A stretch of DNA of 64,000 nt from a bacterium (GTDB lineage Bacteria; Arandabacterota; Arandabacteria; Arandabacterales; Arandabacteraceae). Below the pieces are notes generated by a model, which was not told where the DNA came from, made no database searches, and saw only the letters and a list, made by a program, of their open reading frames with translations. The translations under genes were made by a program, and so were the position numbers. Location: positions 348 through 64,347 of the forward strand of contig JALGZP010000002.1 in the NCBI GenBank assembly GCA_025774845.1, in the 5' to 3' direction. How positions within the stretch are numbered: position 1 is the stretch's first letter; the number at the start of each line of letters is the position of its first letter. This document shows, one piece after another, positions 16,361 to 32,981 of the stretch.

Positions 16361-16492
16361 CTATGCAGTTGGCTCGGAGACCTTCGCGGCCTTTGCCTTT
16401 GCCTTGATCTTCTTCTTTTTGCGAGGACGGGTGTTACCCGAGCTCTTCTTCCAGATCTTACCCTTCCGTGTCCTTCGATCTCCTCTTCCCAT
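16361..16492 (-). CDS. 30S ribosomal protein THX (bTHX), 43 aa, below the track length cut-off
   Basis: Hand translation gives MGRGDRRTRKGKIWKKSSGNTRPRKKKKIKAKAKAAKVSEPTA. This closely parallels the Thermus Thx sequence as I remember it ([25 protein letters not shown]). GGGAGG lies 8 nt upstream of the ATG. Overlaps the 3' end of the upstream gene by 35 nt in another frame. Confidence 0.7.
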   Translation of the reverse strand: MGRGDRRTRKGKIWKKSSGNTRPRKKKKIKAKAKAAKVSEPTA

Positions 16493-17750
16493 CTTTGATA
16501 CCTCCCATATAGATACAGTCCTCTATTTCGCCATACCCGCGGACGATGTCATCGGCAAAAGCGATGCAGGTCGGAGCACCGCAGCATCCGCAGTCGATCC
16601 TGGGCAGCGCATTGTATATTGTATCCTTCTGTTTCTTCTTTTCAATCGCTGTGGCCAGGTCGCTGGCAAGGGGCCGAAGCGGCCTTGGGGCCAGCTTCTT
16701 TTCAAGGGAATAATGTCCCTTGTTATACTTCTCTATAACTTCATCTCTGTCAACCGGAACCTTACCACCATACTTCCTGAGCAGGTGCAGAGTGCTGCTG
16801 CGTGCGACGTACATGTTCTCAACGACAAGCGATCCACCGATGCAACCACCCAGACACGAGGAGAGTTCTACGAATTCCACATCTCTGAGTTTGGAGTTCT
16901 CGATATCGTCAAGGATCTTTGTAACATCACTCATACCGGAAACGGCGATCGAATGCTCCGCACCTATCAGCCTGGTCATCTCCCCCAACATGGACCAGCC
17001 CGCACCGAACTTGAAGTCCCGGGCAACATCCTCGTCAATCTCTTCATTCTCGAGGTCGGCGACCGCTGAGAAGAGAGGAGCAAAGACATCGACGATCGAC
17101 ACGGCACCGTCTATCCAGGATTTCGCCTTTTCGGCAGGCTGTTTGATTGAGACGATCTTTGCGGGGCAGGTCGTGATATAGACTACACCGATCCCCCCGA
17201 CATCCACACCAAGCTCACGTGCCAGATTCTGCTTAACATCTCTGGCAGCTATCTCCCTGGGAACATCTACAGGCACAACCCTGCCGGTCAGATCCGGGTA
17301 CTTCACCTGAATCAACCTCACGACCGCAGGGCAGAACGAGGAGAGAACGGGGAGCCTGCCCCTGTGTTGGGCAATGGACTCATCGATCGCAATGCTCACC
17401 TCTTGACAAGCGAGGGATAGATCACACACATAGTCGAATCCGATTCGCTTGAGCCCCATTATCACTTTTCTCGGATCGACCTCGGGTCTGAACTGCGAAT
17501 AGAGCACCGGTGACGGTAGTGCTACCTTGTACTTGAAATCCAGAGACTGCGCAAAGGGATCCGTAAGCGGCACGATCGCACCCGAGGGACAGACATTTAT
17601 ACACTCACCGCAATCCACGCACAGCTCTTCAATCACCCTCGCCTTGCCGTCACGCATCCTTATCGCAGCTGTGGGACAGCTGCGCATACACTTCATTCTC
17701 CCGTCGCATCTTTCGTCAACGAACTCTATGGGGTGATAGTATTTTCCCAT
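16458..17750 (-). CDS. [FeFe]-hydrogenase large-subunit homologue of the putative sensory type (no PAS domain)
   Basis: 430 aa. N-terminal 2x[4Fe-4S] region (CMRSCP, CVDCGECINVCP). H-cluster-like motifs are SSFCPAV (L1, proton-relay Cys replaced by Phe), TTCPAK (L2) and SSCLGGCIGG (L3, Ser where catalytic enzymes have Met). C-terminal CGCCGAPTC-x16-C. Confidence 0.8.
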   Translation of the reverse strand: MGKYYHPIEFVDERCDGRMKCMRSCPTAAIRMRDGKARVIEELCVDCGECINVCPSGAIVPLTDPFAQSLDFKYKVALPSPVLYSQFRPEVDPRKVIMGLKRIGFDYVCDLSLACQEVSIAIDESIAQHRGRLPVLSSFCPAVVRLIQVKYPDLTGRVVPVDVPREIAARDVKQNLARELGVDVGGIGVVYITTCPAKIVSIKQPAEKAKSWIDGAVSIVDVFAPLFSAVADLENEEIDEDVARDFKFGAGWSMLGEMTRLIGAEHSIAVSGMSDVTKILDDIENSKLRDVEFVELSSCLGGCIGGSLVVENMYVARSSTLHLLRKYGGKVPVDRDEVIEKYNKGHYSLEKKLAPRPLRPLASDLATAIEKKKQKDTIYNALPRIDCGCCGAPTCIAFADDIVRGYGEIEDCIYMGGIKDGKRRSKDTEG

Positions 17751-17752
17751 CG

Positions 17753-18184
17753 CTAATCCGTGTGAATCGTTATGGCCAGTTTGGTGCCTTTCCCCACCTC
17801 GGATTCGATCTCGAAGTCATCTGCATTACGCTTAATGTTCGGAAGCCCCATTCCCGCCCCGAAACCCATCTCCCTCATTTCAGCGGTCGCGGTCGAATAG
17901 CCCTCCTCCATCGCCCGTTCGATACACTCGATGCCCGGGCCTTCATCCTCTAGCTCGATTCGTATGCTTGTCGGGGTGGCCGACAATCTCACCACCGCCC
18001 TCTTCGCATACATGACGATATTCATCTCGGCTTCATAGGATGCAATGGCCGCCCGTCTGATCTTCACCGGATCGAAACCGATTTCCTTGAGAATCGATTT
18101 TATCTCCGTAGAGACCGTACCCGCGTTGGTGAAGTCCTTGCCAAGGACTGAAAATTCTTGGAAGAACAGAACTTCATCGCTCAT
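17753..18184 (-). CDS. RsbW/SpoIIAB-like anti-sigma-type ATPase (HATPase_c) protein
   Basis: 143 aa. EDEGPGI...GFGAGMGLPNIKRNAD...GKGTKLAITI are GHKL ATPase G-boxes. ATGA overlap with the upstream gene. Confidence 0.75.
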   Translation of the reverse strand: MSDEVLFFQEFSVLGKDFTNAGTVSTEIKSILKEIGFDPVKIRRAAIASYEAEMNIVMYAKRAVVRLSATPTSIRIELEDEGPGIECIERAMEEGYSTATAEMREMGFGAGMGLPNIKRNADDFEIESEVGKGTKLAITIHTD

Positions 18185-18540
18185 TTTCCACCAATCTGGC
18201 TTCCGGATTTCATGCCCTTTTCATAGAGGCGGCCGCATGCTTCGAACATCGAAAGCGGACATGACAACAGCGGAATACCCTTCTGTCCGGCCAGCTTCAC
18301 CGCCTCCTCGTCGGGCGTCTTCCCGCGTACATAGACTATCGCTCGCACCTCTGCTACATGAGAGGTTATGACGGATTGGACGTTCCTTAAGCCCGTGAGA
18401 AGAATCCCGCCAGGTGCGGCGAACGCAAGCACATCGCTCATGAGATCGGCGCCGCACACTTCCTCGTAGTCGTGATCGAGCATATCTTCTCCCGTAATCA
18501 CCTCACACTCAATTACCTGGCATATTTCCTTTAGTGTCAA
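18181..18540 (-). CDS. DRTGG-domain-like small protein
   Basis: Track ORF is 18181..18606. I place the start at TTG 18540..18538, which sits 5 nt after GCAGGAGG and just past the upstream stop. Product (M)TLKEICQVIECEVITGED...GGILLTGL...VYVRGK resembles the small DRTGG proteins of NuoEF/[FeFe]-hydrogenase operons. Confidence 0.6.
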   Translation of the reverse strand: MTLKEICQVIECEVITGEDMLDHDYEEVCGADLMSDVLAFAAPGGILLTGLRNVQSVITSHVAEVRAIVYVRGKTPDEEAVKLAGQKGIPLLSCPLSMFEACGRLYEKGMKSGSQIGGK

Positions 18541-18556
18541 TGAAGCCTCCTGCTGT

Positions 18557-20875
18557 TCATACTCCCAGATACTTGCATATCGTACCAGCCGCGCCAACGC
18601 CCTCAACGAATGCTTCTTCGGCTATGACCGGAGACCGGCCAAAACCGCAGGCGAAGATGCCGGAAGCACTTGTGGCGAATGGGGCGGCCAGCGAATCACC
18701 CGTCGCTATGAACTTAAGATCGTCAAGCCTGACTCCGGCCACGCGCGCCAGCTCTTCGTGGTCCGAGCCGTGGAGATGCCCGACTGAAAGCACCACGGCG
18801 TCAAACTCGTTGGAAACACTCTTCCCATCCGTCGAGTCGACGGCTACCTTGAGAGCCCCTTCCGTAGTAATCCGTGGCTCACCCGTGATCTCGATGAAGT
18901 TTACCCCGAGGTCGGCGGCATCCGTGTAGAGATCCTCCTCGAAGCCAAAAACCCTGATCCCTCTGTGGAACACGGTTACCTCTGCGCCGGGATTGTCCTC
19001 TTTGAGTCTGAGCACGTTGGCCAGGGCTTGCTTGCAGCAGTACCTGCTGCAGTAGGGGTGTTCGGCGCTGCGTGCACCTACACACTGAATCATCGCCACC
19101 CGCTTCCAGGAAGCCCGGCCTCCGGTGATACGCTGGCGGAACTCACTCTGGGTCAGGATTGCCTCGTGCTCTCCATGGTGGTACCCCGCAGGCACATAGG
19201 CGTTCGCGCCGGTTGCCATCAGCATCGCACCTGCTTCGAGCGTCTTCTCACCCTGGGGGGTGGAAACCTTGACCGTGATCTTTCCATCCGACGTTTCTAC
19301 GGCCGCTACGGTGCTTTCCTTAAGAACCGTTGCAACCGGGTTCGTCTCTATGGCTTTCACAAAACCGTCAACCACATCGACCTCTGTGCCTTCGGCGATG
19401 GCGGCGAAAGTCAGAGGCTTGCCTATTTCCGCCGACTTCTCAACCACTGTCACTTCTACACCACGCCGCACGAGCTCACTCGCGGCGGCGAGACCCGAGG
19501 TGCCTCCGCCGACCACAACCACACTCGCGGGTCTCTTCTCCCTCCCGGCCTCCGGCAGCTGCGAGGCAGAGGAGCCCTCCGTGACCGAGGCCAATTTCGC
19601 CTTCAGGTCGCCGCTCAGGCCTTCACCACCCACAATCGTGACGCTTCCCCGGGGGAGACCCGAGACCGTCTCAAAGAGCTCTTCATGACTGCCTTTGTGA
19701 CATCCCACCACGACTATCGATGATGTCTCATCCAGATTCGCCCTCATCGCGGCTCTGCCGTCCTTGTAACAAAGGAACGGGTGGACGATACAAAGCCCTT
19801 CGACATCCGACCGGTTCACACCTGCAAGCTCGAGACCGTATTCACAGGCATACACGAACGTCTTGCCCTTGTGCCGGGGTGACTGCTGAGACGGCACAGC
19901 CCCTGAGGAGTCGAGTGATCTGGTTGATGCCGCCAATGCATCGATCACACTCCGGTAAACCGGAGCCGGTCCGCAAACGGCACCACCAAATGATACGGCT
20001 TCGGTCTCGGCGATGAGACTTCCTATGCTGCGTTCAATGAACCCGAACTTGTTGACCCTGATCCCCGCCGTCCTGGCATAGCGCTTGAAGCCGCCAAGGG
20101 CATGGACACCAACGGCAAGCACGACGAGATCGAATTTCGCTTCGGCGGTTTCACCCGCGGCTGAGTATCCAACACTCAGGGTCCCATCCCCGGGATCCTC
20201 CTTGACCGAGGTCACCTCTCCCTCGATGAACTCGATCCAGTTCTCGCCCTGAAGCTCCGAAAGATCGAGCTCACTCCCTTTACCCACTGGTCTTAAGCCC
20301 CTGTGGAATACATGGACCTCCACATCGCCGGCAAGCTTCCTGGCATGTCTGGCCTGTGAAAACGTACGCGAGCAGCAGTCCGATGAGCAGAAGTTCGCGC
20401 CAATGCCCTCTTCCCTCGAACCGACACACTGAATGAAAGCGATTCGTTTCGGTATGTCCCCGTCAAAGGGTCTTACCAGGAGTCCGCCGAATGGACCCGT
20501 GGGACTCACCAGACGCTCGAATTCGAAACTGGTTATCACGTTCGCAGCGTCCGCGTAGCCGAGCTCCTTCTTCCCGTCGGGGTTAAAGACCTGACCGTCG
20601 GACGTGAATACTATGGCGTCTGCTTCGAGCTCGACCCTGCTTGCCGCTTCATCGTAGACGATCGCCTTGGGATCACACTCTGCAAGACACAGCCCGCAGC
20701 CGATACAGCGCCGGCAGCTCAGGCACCGTGCTGCTTCCTTAAGAACCATCTCCTCCGAAAGCCCGAGTTCAACCTCTTCGAAGTTGAGATTCCTCTCTTC
20801 AAGCGGCAGTTCGGGCATCCTATTCCGCTCGGAAGGAATGTCTTTGAACTCGGGTATGAACTTCGGTTTCTTCAT
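18557..20875 (-). CDS. Large HdrA-related flavoprotein: N-terminal Fe-S module plus two HdrA-like modules
   Basis: 772 aa. CLSCRRCIGCGLCLAEC, then two CxGxR...C..CC signatures (IQCVGSREEGIGANFCSSDCC and IQCVGARSAEHPYCSRYCC) and one GGGTSG FAD site. Confidence 0.8.
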   Translation of the reverse strand: MKKPKFIPEFKDIPSERNRMPELPLEERNLNFEEVELGLSEEMVLKEAARCLSCRRCIGCGLCLAECDPKAIVYDEAASRVELEADAIVFTSDGQVFNPDGKKELGYADAANVITSFEFERLVSPTGPFGGLLVRPFDGDIPKRIAFIQCVGSREEGIGANFCSSDCCSRTFSQARHARKLAGDVEVHVFHRGLRPVGKGSELDLSELQGENWIEFIEGEVTSVKEDPGDGTLSVGYSAAGETAEAKFDLVVLAVGVHALGGFKRYARTAGIRVNKFGFIERSIGSLIAETEAVSFGGAVCGPAPVYRSVIDALAASTRSLDSSGAVPSQQSPRHKGKTFVYACEYGLELAGVNRSDVEGLCIVHPFLCYKDGRAAMRANLDETSSIVVVGCHKGSHEELFETVSGLPRGSVTIVGGEGLSGDLKAKLASVTEGSSASQLPEAGREKRPASVVVVGGGTSGLAAASELVRRGVEVTVVEKSAEIGKPLTFAAIAEGTEVDVVDGFVKAIETNPVATVLKESTVAAVETSDGKITVKVSTPQGEKTLEAGAMLMATGANAYVPAGYHHGEHEAILTQSEFRQRITGGRASWKRVAMIQCVGARSAEHPYCSRYCCKQALANVLRLKEDNPGAEVTVFHRGIRVFGFEEDLYTDAADLGVNFIEITGEPRITTEGALKVAVDSTDGKSVSNEFDAVVLSVGHLHGSDHEELARVAGVRLDDLKFIATGDSLAAPFATSASGIFACGFGRSPVIAEEAFVEGVGAAGTICKYLGV

Positions 20876-20877
20876 AT

Positions 20878-22566
20878 CTAACTCAGGTACTCCTTCATTG
20901 AATCGGCTGCTATGTGGCCCGCGCGTATTGCCTCAATCACCGTGGCAGGCCCGGTCACACCATCCCCCCCCGCATATATGCCGGGACGGTTGGTGGCCAT
21001 AGTCCTTTCGTCAACCACAAACGAGTTCCAACGCGATATCTCGAAGCCATGCTCGTCCGGGAGGAACGTGATATCCGGCTGCTGGCTGATGGCCGGAATG
21101 ATGAGATCGGCCTCGACGGTGAATTCCGAACCCTCGACAGGAATCGGCCGTCTTCGGCCGCTTGCATCGAGTTTGCCCAGTCTCATCTTGGTGCATTCCA
21201 TGCCGGCTACCTTTCCGCCTTTACCCAGGATCTTGACCGGTGCGGCAAGGTAGTGAATCTTGACGCCCTCCTCCTCCGCTCCCTCGACCTCCCAGTCGTT
21301 TGCAGGCATCTCCCTTCGCGATCTCCTGTAGAGTATGGTGACCTCCTCACAACCCAACCTGAGCGCCGTCCTTGCCGAATCGATCGCCGAGTTTCCGCCG
21401 CCTATGACTATCACCTTGTTACCCGGTCTTGTCTTGTCTCCGAGATTCACATCCCGGAGGAACTTTATACAGTCAAGAAAACCTTCGTAGTCGTCTTCCC
21501 CGGGCACCCTGAGTTTAAGACCTTCATATGCACCCACGCCCAGGAAGATTCCCTTAAAGCCCTGCTTGAAGAGGTCGTCGACCGTGAACTCCTTCGTGAG
21601 AGGGGTGTTGAGTTTTATCTCGACACCAAGATCTTCGATGTATGCAACATCACTCAAGAGGATGTCCCTGGGCAGCCTGTATTCGGGAATTCCGAGGTGC
21701 ATCATGCCGCCGGGCACGGGAGCGGCCTCAAAAACGGTTACCCGATAACCTTCAAGCGCGAGATCGTGTGCAACCGTAAGACCCGCGGGGCCGGCCCCCA
21801 CCACTGCCACTTTGGTCTTAAGGTCTTTCTTGGGCTTCGGCGGTACGAACTTGCCGGCCTTTCGCTGTGCGACCTCATAATCGCTTACAAAACGCTTGAG
21901 AGCATCAATCGCAATCGCCTCGTCCTGACGCCCCCTGTTACAGACCGTCTCACACGGATGAGGACAGATCCGGCCGCAAACTGCTGGCAGCGGATTCCTG
22001 TCACGAATAACTCTTATTGCTTCTTCGTACCGGCCACCGGCGATCAGTCCCACGTACCTTCTTATGTCTATGTGAACGGGGCATCGCTCCTGGCAGGCGG
22101 GTGTTTCCTTCTCGATATTGTACTCGCCCCCGAAAGTACGCGGCCCCGCAAAGTCTATCGCGGTCCTGAGCATCAAACCCTCGTTATAGCTATCATATGG
22201 CTTTATCGGACAGACAAGCAGGCACTCGGCGCAGGCATTACAGGCCTCGGTTACCCTGCCCGGCTGGTGAGTTAGACTGACTTTGATCCTGTCGTCTTTC
22301 TTACGCACGCTCCCGAGGGTCGAGTTCGTGAGTACCCTGATCCCCGGGTGAGCAAGAACCTCATTCACCAACTTGGATGAAAGACAGACCGATGGGAAGC
22401 CCTCGGGAACCACCCGTTCCTGCTTGAGCAAGAGCCCGCCCAGGAACGGCGACTCCTCAACAAGCGCAACCCTGGCGCCCGATCCCGCAACCTCGAGTGC
22501 TGCCGTAAGCCCGGTGATACCGCCACCGACAACAACTACTTCCCTCGGGGAAGACTTATCACTCAT
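20878..22566 (-). CDS. GltD/NfnB-like NAD(P)H oxidoreductase subunit with an N-terminal HdrA-like FAD fragment
   Basis: Start taken at MSDKSS (ATGAGTGA overlap with the mvhD stop). VVVGGGITG...ACNACAECLLVCP is followed by CGRICPHPCETVCNRG and VAVVGAGPAGL...PGGMMHLGIPEYRLPRD...VIGGGNSAIDSAR, typical of GltD/NfnB. Confidence 0.8.
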   Translation of the reverse strand: MSDKSSPREVVVVGGGITGLTAALEVAGSGARVALVEESPFLGGLLLKQERVVPEGFPSVCLSSKLVNEVLAHPGIRVLTNSTLGSVRKKDDRIKVSLTHQPGRVTEACNACAECLLVCPIKPYDSYNEGLMLRTAIDFAGPRTFGGEYNIEKETPACQERCPVHIDIRRYVGLIAGGRYEEAIRVIRDRNPLPAVCGRICPHPCETVCNRGRQDEAIAIDALKRFVSDYEVAQRKAGKFVPPKPKKDLKTKVAVVGAGPAGLTVAHDLALEGYRVTVFEAAPVPGGMMHLGIPEYRLPRDILLSDVAYIEDLGVEIKLNTPLTKEFTVDDLFKQGFKGIFLGVGAYEGLKLRVPGEDDYEGFLDCIKFLRDVNLGDKTRPGNKVIVIGGGNSAIDSARTALRLGCEEVTILYRRSRREMPANDWEVEGAEEEGVKIHYLAAPVKILGKGGKVAGMECTKMRLGKLDASGRRRPIPVEGSEFTVEADLIIPAISQQPDITFLPDEHGFEISRWNSFVVDERTMATNRPGIYAGGDGVTGPATVIEAIRAGHIAADSMKEYLS

Positions 22567-23347
22567 ATGCAGTCTCACCGTTACCTGAAAGTTCCCACAT
22601 CGGGGTGTTTCCCACGACGGAGTGTATCTCAGCAAAACCCATCTTCTTTAGATCCGCCATCTGTCTTACGAGAATCTTCGGTGCCGTGTCCATCTTGGTG
22701 GCCAGCTCTTTTACCGAATGGGGTTTACCCTTGAGCCGTTCCAGTATCTCTCTCAGTCTGAATTCATCCATCGCTATCTCGTCAAAGAGCCTACCTATCT
22801 CATGGGCCGTGAACTTCTCCCCGTAGAGGTTACCCTTCTCGGTGAATTCCACGATCTTGCCCGTGACCCATCTGATCTTACGGCCGCCGAGCGCCTTCCC
22901 CGCAGCCTGAAGCTTGACCTCAAGATCGTTCTTATCGATGCCCTCGGGCTTACCCAGGGGACCCAGCTCGGTGATATCCTTCTGGAACTCACCTGCGAAC
23001 TCGACGAACTTGTTGCCCTCAGCGCTCGACATCATACGCATCCGGAGTCTGGCAGGATCTATACCCGCCATCCTGAGGACCCGCTTGGTGATTTCCATCT
23101 TGCCCTCGGCATGGAGGTTACCCGAGGTATAATGGCACTCTCCACGCTTGCAGGCGCCCACGAACACTCCGTCCGCACCCGCCAGCAATGACTCGATGAC
23201 CATCACAGGATCCACCCTTCCCGAACACATCACTCTCACAACCCTGATGTCGGGTGCATATTGAAACCTCGCTACCCCGGCGAGGTCAGCCGCACTGTAT
23301 GCTCACCAGTTACAGCAGAAAGCTATGATGTGCGGTTTGAAACTCAT
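22559..23347 (-). CDS. mvhD: MvhD-like iron-sulfur subunit with in-frame UGA (candidate Sec in CCNW-U)
   Basis: Track ORF starts at 23239. Extending upstream in frame gives [47 protein letters not shown], with TGA at 23303..23305. The ATG at 23347 lies 2 nt after the upstream stop. Without the extension the conserved N-terminal Cys block of MvhD is missing. Confidence 0.8.
23267..23285 (-). promoter_or_regulatory. Candidate bacterial SECIS hairpin for UGA 23303
   Basis: mRNA folds as CCUCGC-CGGGGUA-GCGAGG. The 6-bp stem starts 18 nt after the UGA and loop Gs lie at +25 to +28. Confidence 0.6.
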
Positions 23348-23349
23348 AC

Positions 23350-25038
23350 TCACTCCTTTTCGAAAGCTGCCCGTATCTGGGCCGTCAATTGCTCGTCGCT
23401 ATAATGCTTCATTGTAATTGCCCCCCGGTAGCAGGTCGCTCCGCACGTTCCGCAACCCTTGCAGGCGACATCGATTGTCCGTGCTTTCTCGCCGGCCTCG
23501 GTCTCAATCAGCTCAATCGCTCCGTATGGACAGAGCGCCACACAGAGTCCGCACCCCCTGCAGTCTTCCTCGGTTATGAATGAGACAATCGGTTCAACCT
23601 TGACCCGACCGCTTTCGAGGAACGTGGATGCACGCGACGCGGCACCGAGTGCCTGCTCGATGCACTCCTGGATGCCGGCGGGCCACCGTGCGGTTCCGCA
23701 GACAAAGATCCCGTCGGTCGCAAAGTCAAGCGGTCTGAGCTTCACGTGGGCCTCGAGGAAGAAGCCGTATTCATCGAGCGGGACCTTGAGCATCCTGGAA
23801 AGAGCTTCATTCGTACCGGCCGGTACAAGCGGGGTCTCAAGCACAAGGAGATCATACGGGAGCACCATCTCTCTCCCAAGTATGGCACTCGTCACCTTGA
23901 CCTCGCCCTTCTCGGCAAGCGGCGGTGCGTCGTCTGGGTAATTCACGAACCTGACACCGGCTTCCTTGGCATCCATCAGCAGGCTCTCGTTCTTGATCCC
24001 GTAACACATGAGATCCCGGTAGAGCATGGTCACATCAGATTTCCACTTCTTGCGAATGAGGATCGCATTCTTGATTGCCGTCATACAGCATATACGCGAG
24101 CAGTAAAGCCTGTCCCGCATTCTCGACCCGACGCAACCGATCATGACAACGTTCTTAGGACGGGTCCCGGGCTTTGCGAGCAGGCCTTCAAGTTGAAGTT
24201 GGGTTACAGCCCGCTTTGAATCAAAGCCGTACTGTCCTTCCGGAACCAGTACTTCCGCTCCTGTCGCCAGGATTATGATACCTGCCGTCACAGGTTCCTT
24301 AAGCGATGTCACGGATACGATGTAGTTACCTATGTAACCCTTGACCTCGGTCACTTCCGATGACTTGAGAACCTTGATGCGCCGGGCTTTTCCTACACGC
24401 CCCACCAGACCCTTCACATACTCCGCCGCCGGTTTCTCATGCGGGTAGATCCAGTTGACCGCCCTTAAGAGCCCACCGAGTTGTTTCTGTTTCTCAACCA
24501 GAACCACCTCAAACCCTCGTCTCGCAAGCTCGAGCGAAGCGGTCATGCCCGAGATACCTCCACCGATCACAAGCGCGCGTTTCGTCACATCCCCGATGAT
24601 GGGTTCCATCGGCTCAAGATACGCCGCCCGTGCTACACCCATCCTTATGAGGTCCTTCGCCTTCTCCGTAGCCGCCTCGCGATCTTCCTTATGCACCCAC
24701 GAGCAGTGCTCCCTGATATTGACGAATTCAAAATAGTAGGGATTAAGCCCGGCATCTTCGCATGCCGCACGGAATGTTGGCTCATGTGTCCTCGGTGTAC
24801 AGGCGGCGACAACGACCCGTTCAAGTTTGTTATCGGTAATGGCCTGACGGATGTCATTGATCCCGGCTTCCGAACACGAGTAAAGATTCTCTCTCACAAA
24901 GATCACATTTGGAAGACCCGACGCGTAATCGGCCACGGTTTTGGCATCCAGGAAGCCCGCAATATTCGTCCCGCAGTTACAGACGAAAACCCCTATACGC
25001 GGGCCGTTCACCGTGTCTTTCCTGCCTTGCTTACTCAT
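23350..25038 (-). CDS. HdrA paralogue with intact N-terminal Cys domain and C-terminal 2x[4Fe-4S] ferredoxin, lacking the FPTxDCSxC block
   Basis: 562 aa. RIGVFVCNCGTNIAG, VVVAACTPRTHEP, NIREHCSWVH, VIGGGISG, IGCVGSRMRDRLYCSRICCM, and CRGCGLCVALCP / CKGCGTCGATC. ATGA overlap with the upstream gene. Confidence 0.85.
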   Translation of the reverse strand: MSKQGRKDTVNGPRIGVFVCNCGTNIAGFLDAKTVADYASGLPNVIFVRENLYSCSEAGINDIRQAITDNKLERVVVAACTPRTHEPTFRAACEDAGLNPYYFEFVNIREHCSWVHKEDREAATEKAKDLIRMGVARAAYLEPMEPIIGDVTKRALVIGGGISGMTASLELARRGFEVVLVEKQKQLGGLLRAVNWIYPHEKPAAEYVKGLVGRVGKARRIKVLKSSEVTEVKGYIGNYIVSVTSLKEPVTAGIIILATGAEVLVPEGQYGFDSKRAVTQLQLEGLLAKPGTRPKNVVMIGCVGSRMRDRLYCSRICCMTAIKNAILIRKKWKSDVTMLYRDLMCYGIKNESLLMDAKEAGVRFVNYPDDAPPLAEKGEVKVTSAILGREMVLPYDLLVLETPLVPAGTNEALSRMLKVPLDEYGFFLEAHVKLRPLDFATDGIFVCGTARWPAGIQECIEQALGAASRASTFLESGRVKVEPIVSFITEEDCRGCGLCVALCPYGAIELIETEAGEKARTIDVACKGCGTCGATCYRGAITMKHYSDEQLTAQIRAAFEKE

Positions 25039-26330
25039 ACGCCGACTTCCTCATATATCCTGGCCGCCGCCCGCTCTGCGGCGGCACTGGCCTGGCTTAC
25101 CGCCTCGGGTATATCACACGGCCCCTTACAGAACCCACAGGCGAAGATGCCTGCCACACTGGTATCCGCCGGTTGCTCGGGGGGACACAGGATGAAACCG
25201 TACTTGTCCGCCTTGATCCGGAGAAGTTTCGCGAGCCCAAGCGCTCCCCTTGACGGCATCGCCGCGGTTGCCAGCACGACCATTTCGGTCTCAAGCGATT
25301 CGACTTTTCTCTTTCTCGTGTCCTCGTACCACACGATGGGATTCCCGTTGGGACCATCCTCGATCTCGGCAACCCTTCCCCTTATGTACTGGACCCCGTA
25401 CTCTTCCGCCGCCCGCTTCTCGTACTTCTGGAACCCCTTGCCCACGTTCCGGAGGTCCGTGTGGAAGACGTAGGAAACCGATTCGGGATCGTGTTCCCTC
25501 GCCAGCATGGCATCCTTGATCGAATACATACAGCAAACGCTCGAGCAATACGCGCAGTTGTTGAGATCTCTCGAGCCCACACACTGTACGTAAGCCACCT
25601 TCTTGGCCAGCTTGCCGTCGGAGGGTCTGTGGAGATGCCCTCCGGTGGGACCGGTCGCATTTATGAGTCTCTCATACTGTAAGCCGGTTATTACATTCTG
25701 GATCTTGCCAAAACCGTAGTGGGTAAGCGCCGTCGGGTCGAAGATATCAAGCCCGGTCGCGACTATTACCGCATCGACGTCGAGAGCAAGGATCTTGTCC
25801 TTCATCTCGTAGTCTATCGCGCCCTTGTCGCAGATCTTCTTACACACGCCACACTTGCCCTTGGTGAAGTATATGCAGTGGTCGCTGTCTATGGTCATTA
25901 CCGCGGGAATGCCCTGTGAGAAGTAAAGGTATATCGCTTTCCGTTTCCTCAAGTCCATGTCGAAGGCATCGGGTGCTTTTCCCGGGCACTTGCTCACACA
26001 GTCTCCACAGGCATTACAAATTTCTTCATCGACGTAGCGGGTGCGCTTTCTCACCTTGAGTGAGAACTTGCCGCCTTTCCGCTTAAGCCCCTCTATCTCA
26101 CTGTACGCCAGCAGTTCGACCCTGGGATGCCGACCGGCATCCAGCATTTTAGGCGCGAGAATTCATATGGAGCAGTCATTGGTGGGAAAAGTCTTATCAA
26201 GCTGTGCCATCACCCCGCCTATGCTGGGTTTCTTCTCGATCAGATAGACTTGAATACCCATCTCACCGAGGTCTAGCGCAGCCTGAATACCGGCAATCCC
26301 ACCGCCGATCACTGCAACCTTACCTTCCAC
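25035..26330 (-). CDS. hdrA: HdrA core (FAD domain plus inserted ferredoxin) with in-frame UGA (candidate Sec in FPTNDCSI-U)
   Basis: Track ORFs 26163..26372 and 25035..26147 share one frame and are separated only by TGA at 26163..26165. Read-through gives [15 protein letters not shown]...[29 protein letters not shown]...[12 protein letters not shown]...[22 protein letters not shown]. Start placed at GTG 26330, 8 nt after GGGAGG; the ATG at 26372 is an alternative. Confidence 0.85.
26122..26144 (-). promoter_or_regulatory. Candidate bacterial SECIS hairpin for UGA 26163
   Basis: mRNA folds as CUGGAUGCC-GGUC-GGCAUC(C)CAG. A 7-bp perfect core extends to 9 bp with one bulged C. It starts 19 nt after the UGA and has a GGUC tetraloop. 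Confidence 0.7.
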
Positions 26331-27462
26331 GCTTCTTACCTCCCAATGATCCGGCCACAAGCGTGACCGCATCGGTTATCTCTATTTGACCTGAGCAATC
26401 CTCATCCCGCAGGGCGCATCTCAGGTGGATATTGCACTTCGGACAAGCGGTAACAAGCACCTGCGCGCCTGTTGAGATGGCTTCATCAAGTCTCTCGACC
26501 TGGATCTTCTTGTTGACCCTCGAGCAGCTCACCCAGTTGCTTGAACCACAGCAAAGTGCATCCTTACCCCTTCGCGTCATTTCCGCCAGCTCGAGATCGG
26601 GTATGCTCTTGAGCACGTTCCGAGGTTCCTCGATAATGTCATCAGACTTGGCGAGCCTGCAGGGATCGTGGTAGGTCACTTTGGTTTTGCGTGAATTCAA
26701 TCGTATGTCACCCATCTTTTCACTCAGAAGATCAAGGAGGAAGACCACCTCGAGCCCCATACCCCTTACGAACTCCGAATAGACGTGTTTGAACATGTGA
26801 TAGCATTCCGGACAGGAGAACACGACACGTTTTGCACCCGTCTTCTTTATAGCTGCGACATTACGTTTAGCAAGTTCCTTTACGAGATCGCCTCCCCCGG
26901 TCCAGTACTCATCATGACCGCAGCACACCTCACCTTCGCTGACGGCAGGTATGATGCCCAACTGATTGAGCAGACGTACGCTTGAGTTCCCGATCCCCCT
27001 GCCGTCGAAACCGATTTCCTTGAACACGACATCAAGAAAAGGCAGGCAGCCTCCGAAGTAATACGTGCTTGATCTCGACCGTGTCTTCGCGCCACGCCCC
27101 AGCCAGGAAGCCTGTCGTCTGAACCCTGGCATACGTTGCAGGTCGATCAGGGCTGCGAGTGTGTCCGCATGGGTGCAGACACCGCTCTCACCAACCTGTC
27201 TTGCGCGCTCCCTCATCGATCTCATGAAACCCGTGAAATCAACCGTGGACGGACACCGGAGATCACAGGTGCCGCAGGTGAGACAGCTCCACATTTCCGG
27301 GTCGTGCACACTTTCATCCTCACTGAAGAGGAGCGCCTTCTCCACGGTCAGCCGCGGTGAGTAGGCGTCGCGATGCCTGGAAACGGGACAACTGCCCGTA
27401 CAGATACCGCACTCGAGGCAGAGATATGCCTTTGTCTTATCTACGGCCGCGCGAAGCGACAC
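26320..27462 (-). CDS. HdrD-like (fused HdrC/HdrB) Fe-S protein with two CCG domains
   Basis: [12 protein letters not shown] and [12 protein letters not shown] (HdrC-like), then VCCGHDEYW and [11 protein letters not shown] motifs. Start placed at GTG 27462 after AGGAGGAGG; the track start at 27510 is a TTG. Confidence 0.8.
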
Positions 27463-27880
27463 GTTTCCTCCTCCTGGTTGTTTTCTTGAACTGCTTGAGG
27501 AAGTTCCCAAGCACCCTCTTGTATTCCTTGCCCCCGCTCTCCGATATCATGTGAAAGCCGAGGCGTTTCCCCGGTACTCCGGCAATCTCAAGTATCTCCT
27601 GCGTCTCCTTTACTATCTCTCCGCATCTCTGGCTTCCGTTGTAGTAATGACAGTCTCCCTCCTCACAACCCAGTACCAGTACTCCGTCGAAACCCTTGGC
27701 AAACAGCTTCAGCAGGAAAGACACCTTGACCAGACCTGTACATTTGACCGGTATGACAGTCGGACCCGCGTCACAGGTGAAGCCATCCTTCGCGGCATTC
27801 TCCATCGCTGTAAGCGGATGCCATTTGCACGGCACTATTGCCACCTTCGTTTTGATGCTATATACCCCCTGCCGCTTCAA
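27437..27880 (-). CDS. Second MvhD-like Fe-S protein (all-Cys version)
   Basis: 147 aa. VPVKCTGLVKVSFLLKLFAKGFDGVLVLGCEEGDCHYYNGS parallels VMCSGRVDP...GACKRGECHYTSGN of the neighbouring MvhD. Start codon uncertain (the track start is a TTG with no clear RBS). Confidence 0.7.
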   Translation of the reverse strand: MKRQGVYSIKTKVAIVPCKWHPLTAMENAAKDGFTCDAGPTVIPVKCTGLVKVSFLLKLFAKGFDGVLVLGCEEGDCHYYNGSQRCGEIVKETQEILEIAGVPGKRLGFHMISESGGKEYKRVLGNFLKQFKKTTRRRKRVASRGRR

Positions 27881-29612
27881 TAGTCGTATCGATCAGACGG
27901 GCCGTCATATCGGCGTGCGAAAGCGCGCCCGAAGGGCAAACTGAGACACACACTCCGCAACCCACACACTGAATCGGAATCACCTCTGCCCGCTTCAAGC
28001 CGTCTTCGTCAACCACGAGCTCGATGGCGCCGTGCCGGCACACCTCTTCACAACGGCCGCACCCCCTGCACAGGTCCCGGTCGACAGTGGTCGTACGCGC
28101 AATACGCTCTACCTTGCCGAGACTGATGAGGTCGAATGCCCGCGAGGCGGCGCCGTAACCCTGTACGATCGACTCGGTGATCGTCGACGGCCAGTGCGCA
28201 CTCCCCGCAACGAAAACACCTCTCGGAGCATACTCCTCAGGCCTCACCTTAAGCCTCGGCTCCACCAGGAAGCCGTAGCTGTCAGTCGGTATCTTGAACA
28301 TCCGGGCGAGTGATGTGTTCGTCGCCGGGGGCAGCATCGGCACCGCAAGCACAATGCGGTCGAACGGTATGTGGGCTTCCATCTCGGATATCTGGTCGTA
28401 GACCTCAACCGTGGTGTCTCCGAGGACGGGCGGCTTCTCCGGTGAGTACCGGATTATGTCGACACCCATGTCCCTCGCCCGGTCAAGATCACCGGCATAA
28501 CCTGCAAAGCCCCGCGACAGTATCGTCACCTGCGAAGCCGGGAACTTCTGCTTGATCAGGATCGCGTTCTTGATTGAGGCCGTACAACATATACGTGAGC
28601 AATAAGGTCTTTCATCGTTCCGCGATCCCACACACTGGATCATCACGACGTCTGAACCGGGATTGTCCCCACGCTTGAGTATGGCTTCGAACTCAACCTG
28701 GGTAACCACCTGGTCGCGTTCACCGTAGCCAAACAGACCCTTCGGCGTAAGCAGGTCCGCCCCGGTGGCAACAATTATCACACCTGCTTCGATCTTTTCG
28801 CCGCCGGTGAGCTCAATCTCGAAATTCCCGACATGACCGCGGACCGAAACCGGTTCCACCCCGGTTTTCACCTCGACCGCGCCCGCATCGATGTTCCGTG
28901 ACTGGCCGTTGAGAAACTCGGATGCTTCTATGTAGGACGGGAAGACGATGTTGAGTTGTTTTAGCAGTCCCCCGACACTTTCATCCTTCTCTACTATGAT
29001 TGTCTTTACACCTCTCGAAGCCATGGCCGTGGCCGCCGACATACCCGCTATACCACCACCCAGCACAACGCACACCGGTTTGATATCGGCTTCTACCTTT
29101 TCCATCGGACTCGTGCCGGCTACACGGGCAACAGCCATATTTATGAGCCCCAGTGCGCCCGATGTCGTTGCCTTCTTTGCTCCCGGCGGGGCCGAGCACA
29201 ACCTGCTTATGTCCGCAAACTCCACCAGTGAAGGATCGATACCCGACTGCGCCAGAATGTTCCTGAAGAACTTGCCGTACAACCGCTCACTGCTGCCGGC
29301 GACAACTACCCGTGACAGTCCGCGTTTGACAATCAGAGCGCCGATCGCATCTATCTTCCCGATCGTGCAGGGGTAGTCCTGGACCTTGACGAGGGCCACC
29401 TCGGGATTTGCCGCCACCTGTTTCTCGAGTGAGGTGATATCGAGCACACGTGAGAGATCGCTCTCACACTGCGATATTACGACGGCGACACCTGTACCCT
29501 TTGCCCGGACCGGCCGCGTTTGGGATTTCTTTGCAGGGCGTTTCTTGGCGGGTCGTTTCCGGACCCGCGTCGCCTTCTTCGACTTCTTCTTTGTCCGTGT
29601 CTTTCCCGGCAT
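27858..29612 (-). CDS. HdrA paralogue with degenerate (Cys-poor) N-domain and a Lys/Arg-rich N-terminal tail
   Basis: Start taken at ATG 29612 (GAGGAG upstream). MPGKTRTKKKSKKATRVRKRPAKKRPAKKSQTRPVRAK, then VLGGGIAGMSAA, IQCVGSRNDERPYCSRICCT, and CRGCGRCEEVCRHG / CVGCGVCVSVCP. Confidence 0.8.
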   Translation of the reverse strand: MPGKTRTKKKSKKATRVRKRPAKKRPAKKSQTRPVRAKGTGVAVVISQCESDLSRVLDITSLEKQVAANPEVALVKVQDYPCTIGKIDAIGALIVKRGLSRVVVAGSSERLYGKFFRNILAQSGIDPSLVEFADISRLCSAPPGAKKATTSGALGLINMAVARVAGTSPMEKVEADIKPVCVVLGGGIAGMSAATAMASRGVKTIIVEKDESVGGLLKQLNIVFPSYIEASEFLNGQSRNIDAGAVEVKTGVEPVSVRGHVGNFEIELTGGEKIEAGVIIVATGADLLTPKGLFGYGERDQVVTQVEFEAILKRGDNPGSDVVMIQCVGSRNDERPYCSRICCTASIKNAILIKQKFPASQVTILSRGFAGYAGDLDRARDMGVDIIRYSPEKPPVLGDTTVEVYDQISEMEAHIPFDRIVLAVPMLPPATNTSLARMFKIPTDSYGFLVEPRLKVRPEEYAPRGVFVAGSAHWPSTITESIVQGYGAASRAFDLISLGKVERIARTTTVDRDLCRGCGRCEEVCRHGAIELVVDEDGLKRAEVIPIQCVGCGVCVSVCPSGALSHADMTARLIDTTIEAAGGI

Positions 29613-29629
29613 GGTCTCCTCAAACAAAC

Positions 29630-30283: not shown

Positions 30284-32113
30284 TTACTCCACATAAATCG
30301 CATCACCAGCAATCGCATCGAACTTGCACACTTCATAGCATGCGCCGCACTTTATGCATTTGGCTTGATCCAGATTGTGAGGTTGCGCCCTTGCTCCCGC
30401 CAACGCGCCTACCGGACAAGCCTTGACACATCTCTGGCAGCCCGTGCACTTATCCGCAACGACTCTGTAAACGATAAGAGCCTTGCAGACCTTTGCCGGA
30501 CAGCGCTTCTTGTATATGTGCGCTTCATATTCATCACGGAAATACTTGAGTGTAGTGAGTACCGGGTTTGGCGCCGTGGCTCCGAGACCGCAGAGCGATG
30601 CCTCCTTGATCGTCACCGCCAGACTCTCAAGCAGATCTATGTCACCCCGTCTGCCCTCACCCTTGACGATCCGTCCGAGGATTTCTCTCATCCTCCTGAT
30701 TCCCTCCCGGCAGGGTGTGCATTTCCCGCAGGATTCCTCCTCAAGGAAGGCCACGAAGTAATGGGCGACATCGACCATACAGGTATCCTCATCCATCACG
30801 ATCAGGCCTCCCGACCCCATGATCGAACCCGCCTTCGAGAGCTCCTCATAATCCACGGGAAGATCGATCAAAGACGTCGGGATGCAGCCGCCGGAGGGTC
30901 CCCCGCTCTGCACGGCCTTGAACTCCCTGTCCTTGAGTACCCCACCGCCGATATCATATATGATCTGCCTGAGCGTGGTCCCCATCGGAACCTCGATCAG
31001 ACCGGTGTTCTTTATCTTCCCCACAAGCGAGAAGACCTTTGTCCCCTTGCTCTTCTCGGTTCCGAGTGATGCGTACCAGTCTCCGCCGCGCAAAATGATG
31101 GGCGCCACGTTCGCCCAGGTTTCAACGTTGTTTACATTCGTGGGCTTGCCCCAGAGCCCGCTCTCCGCGGGAAATGGCGGACGTGGTCTCGGGCGACCCT
31201 GTTCGCCTTCAATCGATGCCATCAAGGCGGTTTCCTCGCCACAGACGAACGCCCCCGCACCCCTCACCACATTGATCTCGAAGTTGAAGCCGGTCCCGAG
31301 GATATTCTCACCCAAAAGACCGTACTCATGAGCGACTTCAATTGCCTTTGTCACGCGCTCAAGTGCCAGCGGGTACTCTTCTCTCACGTATATGTATCCG
31401 ACGTCAGCCCCGATCGCGCGCGCACCGATTGTCATCCCCTCGAGCACCGAGTGCGGATCGGACTCAAGCAGGCTCCTGTCCATAAAAGCCCCGGGATCTC
31501 CCTCGTCGGCGTTGCATATCACGTACTTACCATCCGGGCCGGGAGATTTCCTGCATATCCCCCACTTGATCCCCGTCGGGAAACCCCCACCTCCTCGTCC
31601 CCTCAAACCGGCTTTCTTGACCTCATCTATGATGTCCTCCGGCTTCATCTCCGTGAGAGCCTTCGGGAGCGCAAGATAACCCTCATTTGCGATGTAGTCA
31701 TCTATGCTGTCGGGATCGATCCTCCCGCGGTTTCGCATCGCAATCAGAACCTGATCCTTGAAAAAGCCGATATCCGAAAGCGAAGGCAGCGAATCCAGTC
31801 CCGGCTTCTCGCCGATCGTGAGACGCTTGACCACCTTCCCACCAACCAGGTGTTTCTTGACTATCTCTTCAACATCGCCGGCGGTTACTTTCCCATAGAC
31901 GGTCCCACCGGGTTCGACGGTTACAACGGGGCCCAGATTGCAGTACGCGTTGCACCTTCCCCCGGTCACCTTGACCCTGCCCGGGACCCTATGGCGCCCG
32001 AGCGATGCTTCGAGAGCTTGTTTCACCTCCCGCGCACCGTTTAAAACACAGCATGTGCCATAGCACACACTGACGGTCATCTGCTTGCGGCCGGATTTCT
32101 TAGTCATATCCAC
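30284..32113 (-). CDS. NuoF/HydB/HndC-like NAD(P)H-binding flavoprotein subunit
   Basis: 609 aa. N-terminal thioredoxin-like 2Fe-2S module, RGRGGGGFPTGIKW FMN-site signature, ESCGKCTPCREG, and C-terminal CTGCQRCVKACP / CIKCGACYEVC. The ATG at 32107 is the more likely start. Confidence 0.9.
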   Translation of the reverse strand: MDMTKKSGRKQMTVSVCYGTCCVLNGAREVKQALEASLGRHRVPGRVKVTGGRCNAYCNLGPVVTVEPGGTVYGKVTAGDVEEIVKKHLVGGKVVKRLTIGEKPGLDSLPSLSDIGFFKDQVLIAMRNRGRIDPDSIDDYIANEGYLALPKALTEMKPEDIIDEVKKAGLRGRGGGGFPTGIKWGICRKSPGPDGKYVICNADEGDPGAFMDRSLLESDPHSVLEGMTIGARAIGADVGYIYVREEYPLALERVTKAIEVAHEYGLLGENILGTGFNFEINVVRGAGAFVCGEETALMASIEGEQGRPRPRPPFPAESGLWGKPTNVNNVETWANVAPIILRGGDWYASLGTEKSKGTKVFSLVGKIKNTGLIEVPMGTTLRQIIYDIGGGVLKDREFKAVQSGGPSGGCIPTSLIDLPVDYEELSKAGSIMGSGGLIVMDEDTCMVDVAHYFVAFLEEESCGKCTPCREGIRRMREILGRIVKGEGRRGDIDLLESLAVTIKEASLCGLGATAPNPVLTTLKYFRDEYEAHIYKKRCPAKVCKALIVYRVVADKCTGCQRCVKACPVGALAGARAQPHNLDQAKCIKCGACYEVCKFDAIAGDAIYVE

Positions 32114-32981
32114 CCAGAACCTGCGGGATCTTCTCCTGGGTCATCTTCCCGTAGAATTTCCCGTCAACAACGAATACCGGAGCCAGTCCGCAGCAACCCA
32201 CACATCTCACGGACTCAAGCGAGAACTTGTCATCATAGGTGGTCTCACCCGTGTGAATTCCCAACTCCCGCTCGAAACTGTCGAGAAGGTTGGTGCCTCC
32301 CCTCACATGACAGGCAGTCCCCAGACACACGTGGATCATGTGTCTCCCCCTCGGAAGCAGGCTGAATGACTTGTAGAAGGTCGCAATTCCATAAACCCTC
32401 GGAAGATCGATGTTGACTCTTCCTGCGACAAACCTCAGCGCCTCCTGAGGCAGGTAGTTGAGTTCCTTCTGTATATCCTGCAAGTAGGAAATCAGCATGG
32501 ATTCTGAAAAGCGATGTTTGGCAAGGATCCCGTCAATCGCAGCAAGACTTGCGGGATCGTCAAAACTCTTGATCCTCCGCTCCCTGGCTTTCTCCCTGGT
32601 TTCGACCTCCATGCGTTCCTTACCCAACGCGTGGGATATCATGTCGGAGAGTTCCGGCATGGGGCTGAACTTGGAGATGTAGTTGTAGGCTCCTCTCCGC
32701 ATCGCCTCCACGGCCCCTTCGACGGTCGGAGTTGCCGTCTCGCCTATGATCGGAACCATCGGCATGATATCGTGGACGGTCTTCAGAAGCATCAGGCCGT
32801 CATCATGAGGAAGATCGAGATCAATGATAACGAGATGGGGAGGTCTTGCACCTATCTCGGAAAGCAAGGCGGCCCCGTCGGGAGCCAGTCGTACCGCATA
32901 CCCGTGGCCGGTCAGTGCGCTTTCTAACTCACTCCGCCTTCCGGGTTCTTGCTCCAATACTAGAAGAACAAGTTCGATCAA
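32100..32981 (-). CDS. Receiver (REC)-domain fused to NuoE/HydC-like [2Fe-2S] subunit
   Basis: 293 aa with a TTG start after AAAGGA. N-terminus LVLLVLEQEPGRR...HLVIIDLDLPHDDG...ISKF follows a CheY-like pattern. C-terminus HVCLGTACHVRG...VRCVGCCGLAPV carries the NuoE Cx4C...Cx3C cluster motif. Confidence 0.8.
   Translation of the reverse strand: MIELVLLVLEQEPGRRSELESALTGHGYAVRLAPDGAALLSEIGARPPHLVIIDLDLPHDDGLMLLKTVHDIMPMVPIIGETATPTVEGAVEAMRRGAYNYISKFSPMPELSDMISHALGKERMEVETREKARERRIKSFDDPASLAAIDGILAKHRFSESMLISYLQDIQKELNYLPQEALRFVAGRVNIDLPRVYGIATFYKSFSLLPRGRHMIHVCLGTACHVRGGTNLLDSFERELGIHTGETTYDDKFSLESVRCVGCCGLAPVFVVDGKFYGKMTQEKIPQVLGGYD

Follow-up and report, generated by a model that had tools for sequence, protein, structure and literature searches.

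The 64,000-nucleotide stretch of contig JALGZP010000002.1 analysed here, called the window, carries on its minus strand a gene for an HdrA-like flavoprotein whose reading frame is interrupted by an in-frame TGA. This locus raises the question of how that triplet is read: as the end of a short peptide, as the trace of an error or of a dying gene, as a codon for an ordinary amino acid, or as a codon for selenocysteine (Sec). With high confidence, the TGA at 26165..26163 is a Sec codon inside a single gene that encodes an HdrA-like flavoprotein of 431 residues. The evidence comes from the codon found at the same position in related genes, from an mRNA hairpin that follows the UGA, and from a second gene of the same operon that has the same arrangement.

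The complete gene occupies 25035..26330 on the minus strand, from a GTG at 26330 to a TGA terminator at 25037..25035. An earlier, sequence-only reading of this DNA had joined the ORFs (open reading frames) at 26163..26372 and 25035..26147 into one gene, and both the ORF listing and the translation bear this out, as the two minus-strand ORFs share one frame and the sole stop between them is the TGA. The fused product of 431 residues that it proposed is recovered with the GTG at 26330 as the most plausible start, and inspection of the start site finds a Shine-Dalgarno-like GGGAGG(T) upstream of this codon, at 26338..26344. It had also held that neither half makes a sensible protein alone, and Pfam agrees with this, since the N-terminal piece contains only the Rossmann start of a flavin adenine dinucleotide (FAD)-binding fold and the C-terminal piece lacks that start. 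By the reading of the frame and by alignments, the UGA (26163..26165, minus strand) corresponds to residue 56, Sec56, which is the last residue of a CxxU motif (C53-S-I-U56).

TGA is also an ordinary terminator in this DNA. It ends 12 of the 29 Pfam-supported genes of the window, among which it is the commonest terminator, and it ends the HdrA-like gene itself, so UGA is not reassigned in the window. This bears directly on the idea that the UGA is read through without selenium, either by genome-wide reassignment to Trp or Gly (codes 4 and 25), which is known from some uncultured bacterial lineages, or by suppression with a near-cognate Cys or Trp tRNA, for which there is a parallel in the Cys insertion that occurs at Sec UGA codons of other systems under selenium limitation. 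Reassignment conflicts with the use of TGA as a terminator, and nothing supports suppression independent of Sec. Decoding without selenium has accordingly a slim probability, and the second gene described below makes a further point against it.

The residue expected at the TGA was obtained from homologous proteins, for which 5.8 billion proteins were searched and the best 120 matches were inspected. About 95 of these 120 are truncated C-terminal pieces of 364-382 residues that start at the Met just past the TGA, come from many phyla and have 65-100 % identity to the window protein, while the full-length HdrA-like proteins among them (428-443 residues) appear only at 56-61 % identity. Alignment of the fused product to HdrA families, which the sequence-only reading had proposed as a check, places the TGA on an invariant Cys: each of the 22 aligned full-length homologues has Cys here, within the block FPTNDC[SA][IL]C. 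Residue 56 also aligns, without gaps and with E = 4e-130, to Cys197 of the HdrA of Methanothermobacter wolfeii (5odc_A), and the Cys197 position is Sec197 in the HdrA of Methanococcus maripaludis (PMC13518236).

A scan of genome contigs served as the panel of Cys and Sec types; its listed matches are mostly distant (41-52 % identity) and include two close relatives. Among the matches listed, 115 HdrA-like genes from 78 genome loci have TGA (48 genes), TGC (40 genes) or TGT (27 genes) at this column, and a TAA, a TAG or a codon for any other amino acid, which had been named beforehand as an observation that would speak against Sec, was sought in these 115 genes and occurs in none. The Desulfobacterota loci of the panel carry TGA at this column together with compliant hairpins. 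The earlier statements that the column is Cys in most HdrA proteins, and Sec in some HdrA proteins of methanogens and of deltaproteobacteria, are all upheld by these comparisons. Table 1 of PMC13188914 includes HdrA among the CxxU selenoprotein families, and HdrA and FrhD/MvhD are common bacterial selenoprotein families, HdrA being among the commonest and known since 2006 (PMC1794560, PMC13188914). The window gene has the features of a CxxU family, with UGA on the second Cys of FPTxDCxxC, homologues that have Cys instead, and close orthologues that keep the UGA.

One genome scan, one metagenome scan, which supplied most of the close relatives, and three exact look-ups provided the DNA of relatives. 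Each of the 22 Sec-clade relatives whose DNA was examined keeps the TGA, at 64-88 % protein identity to the window. These are one Eisenbacteria locus (L001), one Aminicenantes locus (L002), the metagenomic loci L081-L097, one locus each of Latescibacteria (L113) and KSB1 (L115), and CP070758.1 (L114; assembly GCA_020348925.1), a complete genome of Gemmatimonadota that carries TGA and hairpin at about position 4,133,710. Across these 22 independently assembled relatives, the TGA and the hairpin that follows it are conserved in at least five phyla.

Upstream of the TGA, the 52 codons of the N-terminal piece have a mean identity of 85 % to the window and contain no stop in 19 loci, and the codon differences from the window in these loci comprise 398 synonymous and 148 nonsynonymous changes; only identities of the N-terminal piece are usable in this comparison, as the ungapped identities of the C-terminal piece are lowered by insertions and deletions in some loci. 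Because of this identity, the excess of synonymous changes and the absence of stops, the N-terminal piece is taken to be translated and under purifying selection. These observations leave almost no probability, the smallest of any explanation weighed here, to a sequencing or assembly error or to a recent nonsense mutation in a pseudogene in which TGC or TGT is the true or original codon. A single-base change does convert TGC or TGT into TGA, and the window comes from a metagenome-type assembly, but 22 independently assembled relatives from several phyla share the TGA, and the gene is under purifying selection on both sides of it, with no further stop in the N-terminal piece. The SECIS-type (selenocysteine insertion sequence) hairpin, moreover, tracks the TGA and is not found in Cys versions, and the MvhD-like gene of the operon repeats the pattern.

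In public records the orthologues are split into an ORF of 54-55 residues and a protein of 370-374 residues named “HdrA / 4Fe-4S binding protein”. This split annotation is found in JGI, NCBI (for example MFH1312575.1) and ENA records from at least five phyla, and the split orthologue genes lie at 5818..7122 in L113, 5818..7125 in L114 and 5818..7122 in L115. Taken at face value, these records describe a gene that is genuinely split, in which the UGA ends a 55-residue FAD-binding peptide, a 370-residue protein starts at ATG 26147, and the two assemble non-covalently. JGI and NCBI annotations and the gene calls of ENA/Logan contigs do give proteins of 364-382 residues from that ATG, the N-terminal pieces of 54-55 residues are called as genes of their own, and ATG 26147 is an in-frame Met only five codons past the UGA. 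However, ATG 26147 has no Shine-Dalgarno sequence, whereas GTG 26330 and the start of the MvhD-like gene have one, and the break falls exactly at the Cys/Sec column of the CxxC motif, so that the conserved residue equivalent to Cys197 would be lost entirely. The stop is TGA in 48 of 48 genes among the matches listed, never TAA or TAG, and synonymous sites hardly vary within the SECIS-compliant hairpin just downstream. A split gene is very improbable on this evidence, and a single gene with a Sec codon is the preferred explanation of the annotated halves.

The hairpin that follows the UGA, CUGGAUGCC-GGUC-GGCAUC(C)CAG, lies at 26122..26144 on the minus strand and is part of the minimum-free-energy (MFE) fold. 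It begins at the 19th nucleotide after the UGA and in the window has 9 bp with a one-nucleotide bulge, as the sequence-only reading had described it. Relatives keep only the inner 7 bp, and the conserved core is formed on the minus strand by GGAUGCC (26142..26136), the loop GGUC (26135..26132) and GGCAUCC (26131..26125). The earlier reading had also recommended comparison with a model of bacterial SECIS (bSECIS) elements. The bSECIS model of Zhang and Gladyshev (PMC13188914 Fig. 2) has a loop of 3-9 nt, an upper stem of 4-16 bp, a distance of 16-37 nt between UGA and loop and an MFE of -7.5 kcal/mol or lower, and its loop has a G at position 1 or 2, usually followed by G or U. With 27 nt from UGA to loop, a 4-nt GGUC loop, a 7-bp stem and -11.5 kcal/mol, the HdrA hairpin falls within all four constraints.

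The GGAUGCC-GGUC-GGCAUCC core is present in every sequence of the Sec clade and is not found in Cys-type paralogues, whose peptide also differs at this place. In an alignment of 19 sequences the GGUC loop is invariant, and 97.7 % of the cells of the core can pair, as against 18-55 % once the 3' arm is shifted. One C-G pair is replaced by U-A in three sequences, by a change of GCC to GUC (Ala to Val) that is compensated by a synonymous change of CGG to CGA. Mean entropy at third codon positions is 0.21 in the hairpin and 1.21 in the flanking sequence (p = 0.0009), and sites that never vary in the hairpin include fourfold-degenerate ones.

Hairpins of this geometry are uncommon after other TGA trinucleotides. 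As a control for chance, 3.6 % of the 2,442 TGA trinucleotides of the window pass the bSECIS geometry and 0.6 % do so at -11 kcal/mol or lower, and among the 16 strongest passing sites only those of the HdrA-like and MvhD-like genes lie in an open coding frame. In the panel drawn from the matches listed, a compliant hairpin is found in 60 of 67 unique TGA-type homologues and in 1 of 78 Cys-type homologues (Fisher p = 1e-31). The HdrA hairpin, as a SECIS variant of the clade's own, is almost certainly to be predicted to act as a bacterial SECIS. It is similar to the SECIS of Escherichia coli fdhF in being a stem-loop directly past the UGA and inside the coding sequence, but the two have no sequence similarity beyond the loop. 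The apical loop of the fdhF element carries a GGUC/GU motif that is contacted by SelB, and its upper stem has a bulged U, which has no counterpart in the HdrA hairpin of the window.

A second Sec codon, which was absent from the sequence-only reading, is found in an MvhD-like gene of the same operon, 2.9 kb downstream of the HdrA UGA. The ORF at 23239..22559 matches the FlpD/MvhD family of Pfam (E = 9e-30) from profile position 32 only, which led to a reading of the frame further upstream and revealed the UGA. The in-frame upstream sequence starts at ATG 23347, which has AAGGAG ahead of it, and reads MSFKPHIIAFCCNW-TGA-AYSAADLAG. The complete MvhD/FlpD-like selenoprotein gene thus delimited, at 22559..23347 on the minus strand, encodes 262 residues and is supported by the FlpD model of Pfam and by structural alignment. 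Residues 1-133 of the fused protein align to the solved MvhD 8rvu_F (E = 5e-41) and form a complete MvhD domain, which is followed by a C-terminal extension of about 125 residues that has a weak match to HTH_11 and is unusual for MvhD. The UGA (23303..23305, minus strand) encodes residue 15, Sec15, of a CxxU motif (C12-N-W-U15), placed by alignments and by comparison with PMC13188914 Table 1, and this residue stands opposite Cys15 of 8rvu_F and Cys16 of 5odc_D. Proteins of PF02662 (MvhD/FrhD/VhuD) are a CxxU selenoprotein family (PMC13188914, PMC1794560).

Folding and the bSECIS model give a hairpin for this gene as well, GACCUCGC-CGGGGUA-GCGAGGUU, at 23265..23287 on the minus strand. It has 23 nt from UGA to loop, a 7-nt loop and 8 bp in the window, with a conserved core of 6 bp, and at -11.6 kcal/mol it passes the model. 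One compensatory change of C-G to U-A is found in it, and synonymous variation is reduced (p = 0.013). The MvhD TGA is present in 14 of 14 Sec-clade relatives whose fetched sequence includes the MvhD motif, and in loci among the matches listed Cys-type HdrA is accompanied by Cys-type MvhD, that is, the UGA of HdrA and the UGA of MvhD co-occur. A general search for neighbouring ORFs of one frame with a TGA between them was non-discriminating. Decoding of UGA without selenium is further opposed by these data, in that both internal TGAs coincide with Cys/Sec columns in families known to contain selenoproteins and are followed by SECIS-type hairpins. Because two UGA codons that align with Cys and have such hairpins occur in known selenoprotein families, this organism very likely decodes Sec.

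Residues 5-424 of the Sec-containing HdrA-like protein align to residues 146-564 of 5odc_A, and its Pfam matches are Pyr_redox_2, FAD_oxidored and Fer4_7. Its two domains are a thioredoxin-reductase-like FAD domain and an inserted ferredoxin domain, and it is devoid of the N-terminal Fe-S domain and of the C-terminal ferredoxin domain. It departs in this from the four-domain architecture of methanogen HdrA, and the domains that it lacks are present in the adjoining paralogue. By its sequence, the 431-residue protein is classed as a truncated HdrA-like subunit and not as a canonical HdrA. The partner gene (23350..25038, minus strand) encodes an HdrA-like protein of 562 residues, which has the N-terminal Fe-S domain and is without the CxxC/U motif.

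In the M. wolfeii structure, the N-terminal [4Fe-4S] cluster of one HdrA takes its fourth ligand, Cys197, from the other HdrA, and for tandem HdrA genes that are complementary in this way an obligate heterodimer has been put forward (PMC9012536). A Cys-Sec selenylsulfide relay from the cluster to FAD has been proposed for the Sec-type HdrA of M. maripaludis from cryo-electron microscopy density (PMC13518236). Because the Sec copy has no N-terminal domain, and its neighbour has one but lacks CxxC/U, the 431-residue and 562-residue proteins would most likely form an asymmetric heterodimer, in which Sec56 would serve the N-terminal cluster of the partner.

By analogy with the established bacterial mechanism, SelB with GTP and Sec-tRNA(Sec) would bind the GGAUGCC-GGUC-GGCAUCC hairpin of the mRNA when the ribosome reaches the UGA, and SelB would deliver Sec there in competition with release factor 2. 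The Sec56 so inserted would be the U of a CxxU motif that corresponds to Cys194/Cys197 in the HdrA of methanogens, and it may reach across the dimer interface and supply the N-terminal [4Fe-4S] cluster of the partner with its fourth ligand. Alternatively, Sec56 may take part in a Cys-Sec selenylsulfide relay from the N-terminal cluster of the partner to FAD.

Several observations weigh against selenocysteine at this UGA or against parts of the scheme built on it. The folding energy of the local 69 nt is ordinary in comparison with shuffled sequences (z = -0.45), a kind of z-score that carries no information on hairpins this short in GC-rich coding DNA. Covariation is thin, with one compensatory pair per hairpin and both hairpins nearly invariant, and the conserved peptide LDAGRH could explain part of the invariance of the HdrA hairpin. 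In Rfam, neither hairpin is matched when the whole window is searched at the gathering threshold or when 23100..26400 is searched at E <= 10. The 6-bp MvhD hairpin of L113 and L114 misses -7.5 kcal/mol under strict, ungapped evaluation. Pfam finds no SelA, SelB or SelD among 30 long ORFs of the 64-kb window, and ARAGORN finds no tRNA genes, and so no tRNA-Sec, in the window and in 20 close related loci. The role of Sec56, as cluster ligand or as selenylsulfide relay, and the heterodimer itself are extrapolated from homologues.

The two Sec-containing genes belong to an operon that begins with genes for a receiver-NuoE-like protein, a NuoF-like protein, a 2Fe-2S/4Fe-4S protein, a third HdrA-like protein (589 residues) and a degenerate MvhD-like protein, and continues with those for an HdrD-like protein (CCG), the Sec-containing HdrA, the HdrA of 562 residues, the Sec-containing MvhD and two GltD/NfnB-like flavoproteins. 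This order is kept in L113 and L115, and L114 retains only the part from the CCG-domain gene onward. The domain content of its products points to a soluble, NAD(P)H-linked complex for flavin-based electron bifurcation as what the operon would encode.

Some members of the operon have features of their own. The gene at its head (32100..32981, minus strand) encodes a NuoE-like, thioredoxin-like [2Fe-2S] protein with an N-terminal response-regulator receiver domain, a fusion that suggests phosphorylation-controlled electron input. The third HdrA-like protein (27858..29627, minus strand; 589 residues) has a Lys/Arg-rich N-terminal tail and a region like the N-terminal domain, and it has NIVFPSYIEAS at the place of the CxxC/U motif, which it lacks. 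The small MvhD/FlpD-like ORF at 27437..27880 (minus strand) has the degenerate N-terminal motif VPCKWHPL, as against FCCNWC/U, and has presumably lost one cluster ligand; its position is kept in L113 and L115, whose gene calls give it as an FlpD gene of 138-162 residues. One of the GltD/NfnB-like flavoproteins (20878..22635, minus strand) has an extra N-terminal Rossmann segment (MSDKSSPREVVVVGGGITG...) before Fer4_20 and Pyr_redox_2. The TTG start listed for its gene overlaps the MvhD gene, and the true start is probably an ATG about 85-90 nt past this TTG, near the MvhD stop. Downstream of the operon, 16458..18560 (minus strand) encodes an Fe-only-hydrogenase-like protein, with Fe_hyd_lg_C and the ‘FeS’ domain PF04060, together with a small ORF for an anti-sigma/histidine-kinase-like ATPase and a DRTGG-like ORF. 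We take this gene set to resemble sensory [FeFe]-hydrogenase regulatory modules.

Among known systems, the Sec-containing HdrA of Methanococcales (HdrA-U of M. maripaludis, with Sec197, and that of Methanocaldococcus jannaschii) is of the same family and has Sec at the same residue, with CxxU in an FPTxDCxxU block, in the FAD domain (PMC13518236), and its operon partner is likewise a Sec-containing protein, MvhD/VhuD. Archaeal Sec-HdrA genes, however, have an archaeal SECIS in the 3' untranslated region, whereas the window gene has a bacterial in-frame hairpin directly after the UGA. The archaeal proteins have about 650 residues and all four domains and form homodimers, in contrast to the 431 residues and two domains of the window protein.

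The Sec-containing HdrA proteins of Deltaproteobacteria and Clostridia (Syntrophobacter fumaroxidans, Desulfotalea, Moorella and others; Zhang et al. 2006, PMC1794560) have a UGA at the same column, a downstream hairpin and an operon in which Sec-containing FrhD/MvhD co-occurs. They have only 41-52 % identity to the window protein and differ from it in lineage, which here comprises Eisenbacteria and phyla of the FCB group. The deltaproteobacterial SECIS has mostly an AGGU loop 22 nt past the UGA, whereas the clade of the window has GGUC at 27 nt. The operons differ as well: the window has NuoEF-like and GltD-like genes, the deltaproteobacterial and clostridial sets have frhAG of [NiFe]-hydrogenase, and the HdrD/GlpC-like gene of the window is without Sec. 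In many Desulfobacterota loci (L017, L022, L025 and others) Sec-HdrA genes come as neighbouring pairs spaced about 3.9 kb, both members with TGA at this column and with hairpins of the AGGU class (22 nt past the UGA), unlike the clade of the window.

Tandem or fused HdrA pairs, such as HdrA5/6 and HdrA12/13 of ANME archaea and the HdrA of the MetFV-HdrABC-MvhD complex of Moorella (Chadwick et al. 2022, PMC9012536), have a complementarity of Cys197 and N-terminal domain that fits the window pair. Unlike those pairs, the window pair has Sec at the Cys197 position and bacterial hosts of the FCB group, and its two copies also divide the inserted and the C-terminal ferredoxin domains between them in a complementary way.

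The pairing of Sec-containing HdrA with Sec-containing MvhD has precedents in archaea, Deltaproteobacteria and Clostridia (PMC1794560, PMC13188914); both are long-known families, and the phenomenon is textbook selenoprotein biology. What is new is the lineage (Candidatus Eisenbacteria, to judge from the closest genome listed, L001, and from a protein of the same 90 % cluster, MFH1312575.1, and several other phyla of the FCB group), the GGUC hairpin specific to the clade, the combination of Sec with tandem-HdrA complementarity, and the operon context of NuoEF and GltD genes. A look at the literature on Sec use in Eisenbacteria and the FCB phyla found nothing specific.

For annotation, recognition of the selenoproteins restores two complete redox subunits, as the MvhD-like gene is likewise annotated in an N-terminally truncated form, and the split affects dozens of orthologue records at NCBI, JGI and ENA. 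The main use of the finding is this correction, together with the pointer that it gives to selenium dependence in these phyla.

A wider interpretation is possible, though it must be held as tentative and somewhat doubtful. The Sec-HdrA/HdrA pair, Sec-MvhD, the NuoE/F-like and HdrD-like proteins and the two GltD/NfnB-like flavoproteins might form an uncharacterised, soluble, selenium-dependent and NAD(P)H-linked bifurcating complex that is distributed across phyla of the FCB group (Eisenbacteria, Latescibacteria, Gemmatimonadota, KSB1 and Aminicenantes), and in which the selenolate of one HdrA ligates or gates the [4Fe-4S] cluster of another HdrA. If true, Sec-dependent Hdr chemistry would extend well past methanogens and sulfate reducers, and the complex would be an asymmetric natural system for probing the function of Sec197. 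In the HdrA pair the Sec and the N-terminal cluster that it targets belong to different subunits, and this naturally occurring asymmetry bears on whether residue 197 of HdrA is a cluster ligand or part of a selenylsulfide relay (PMC13518236, PMC9012536). For the physiology of these bacteria, the finding implies Sec decoding, and a requirement of an Hdr-type complex for selenium, in Eisenbacteria and several related phyla that are mostly uncultured.

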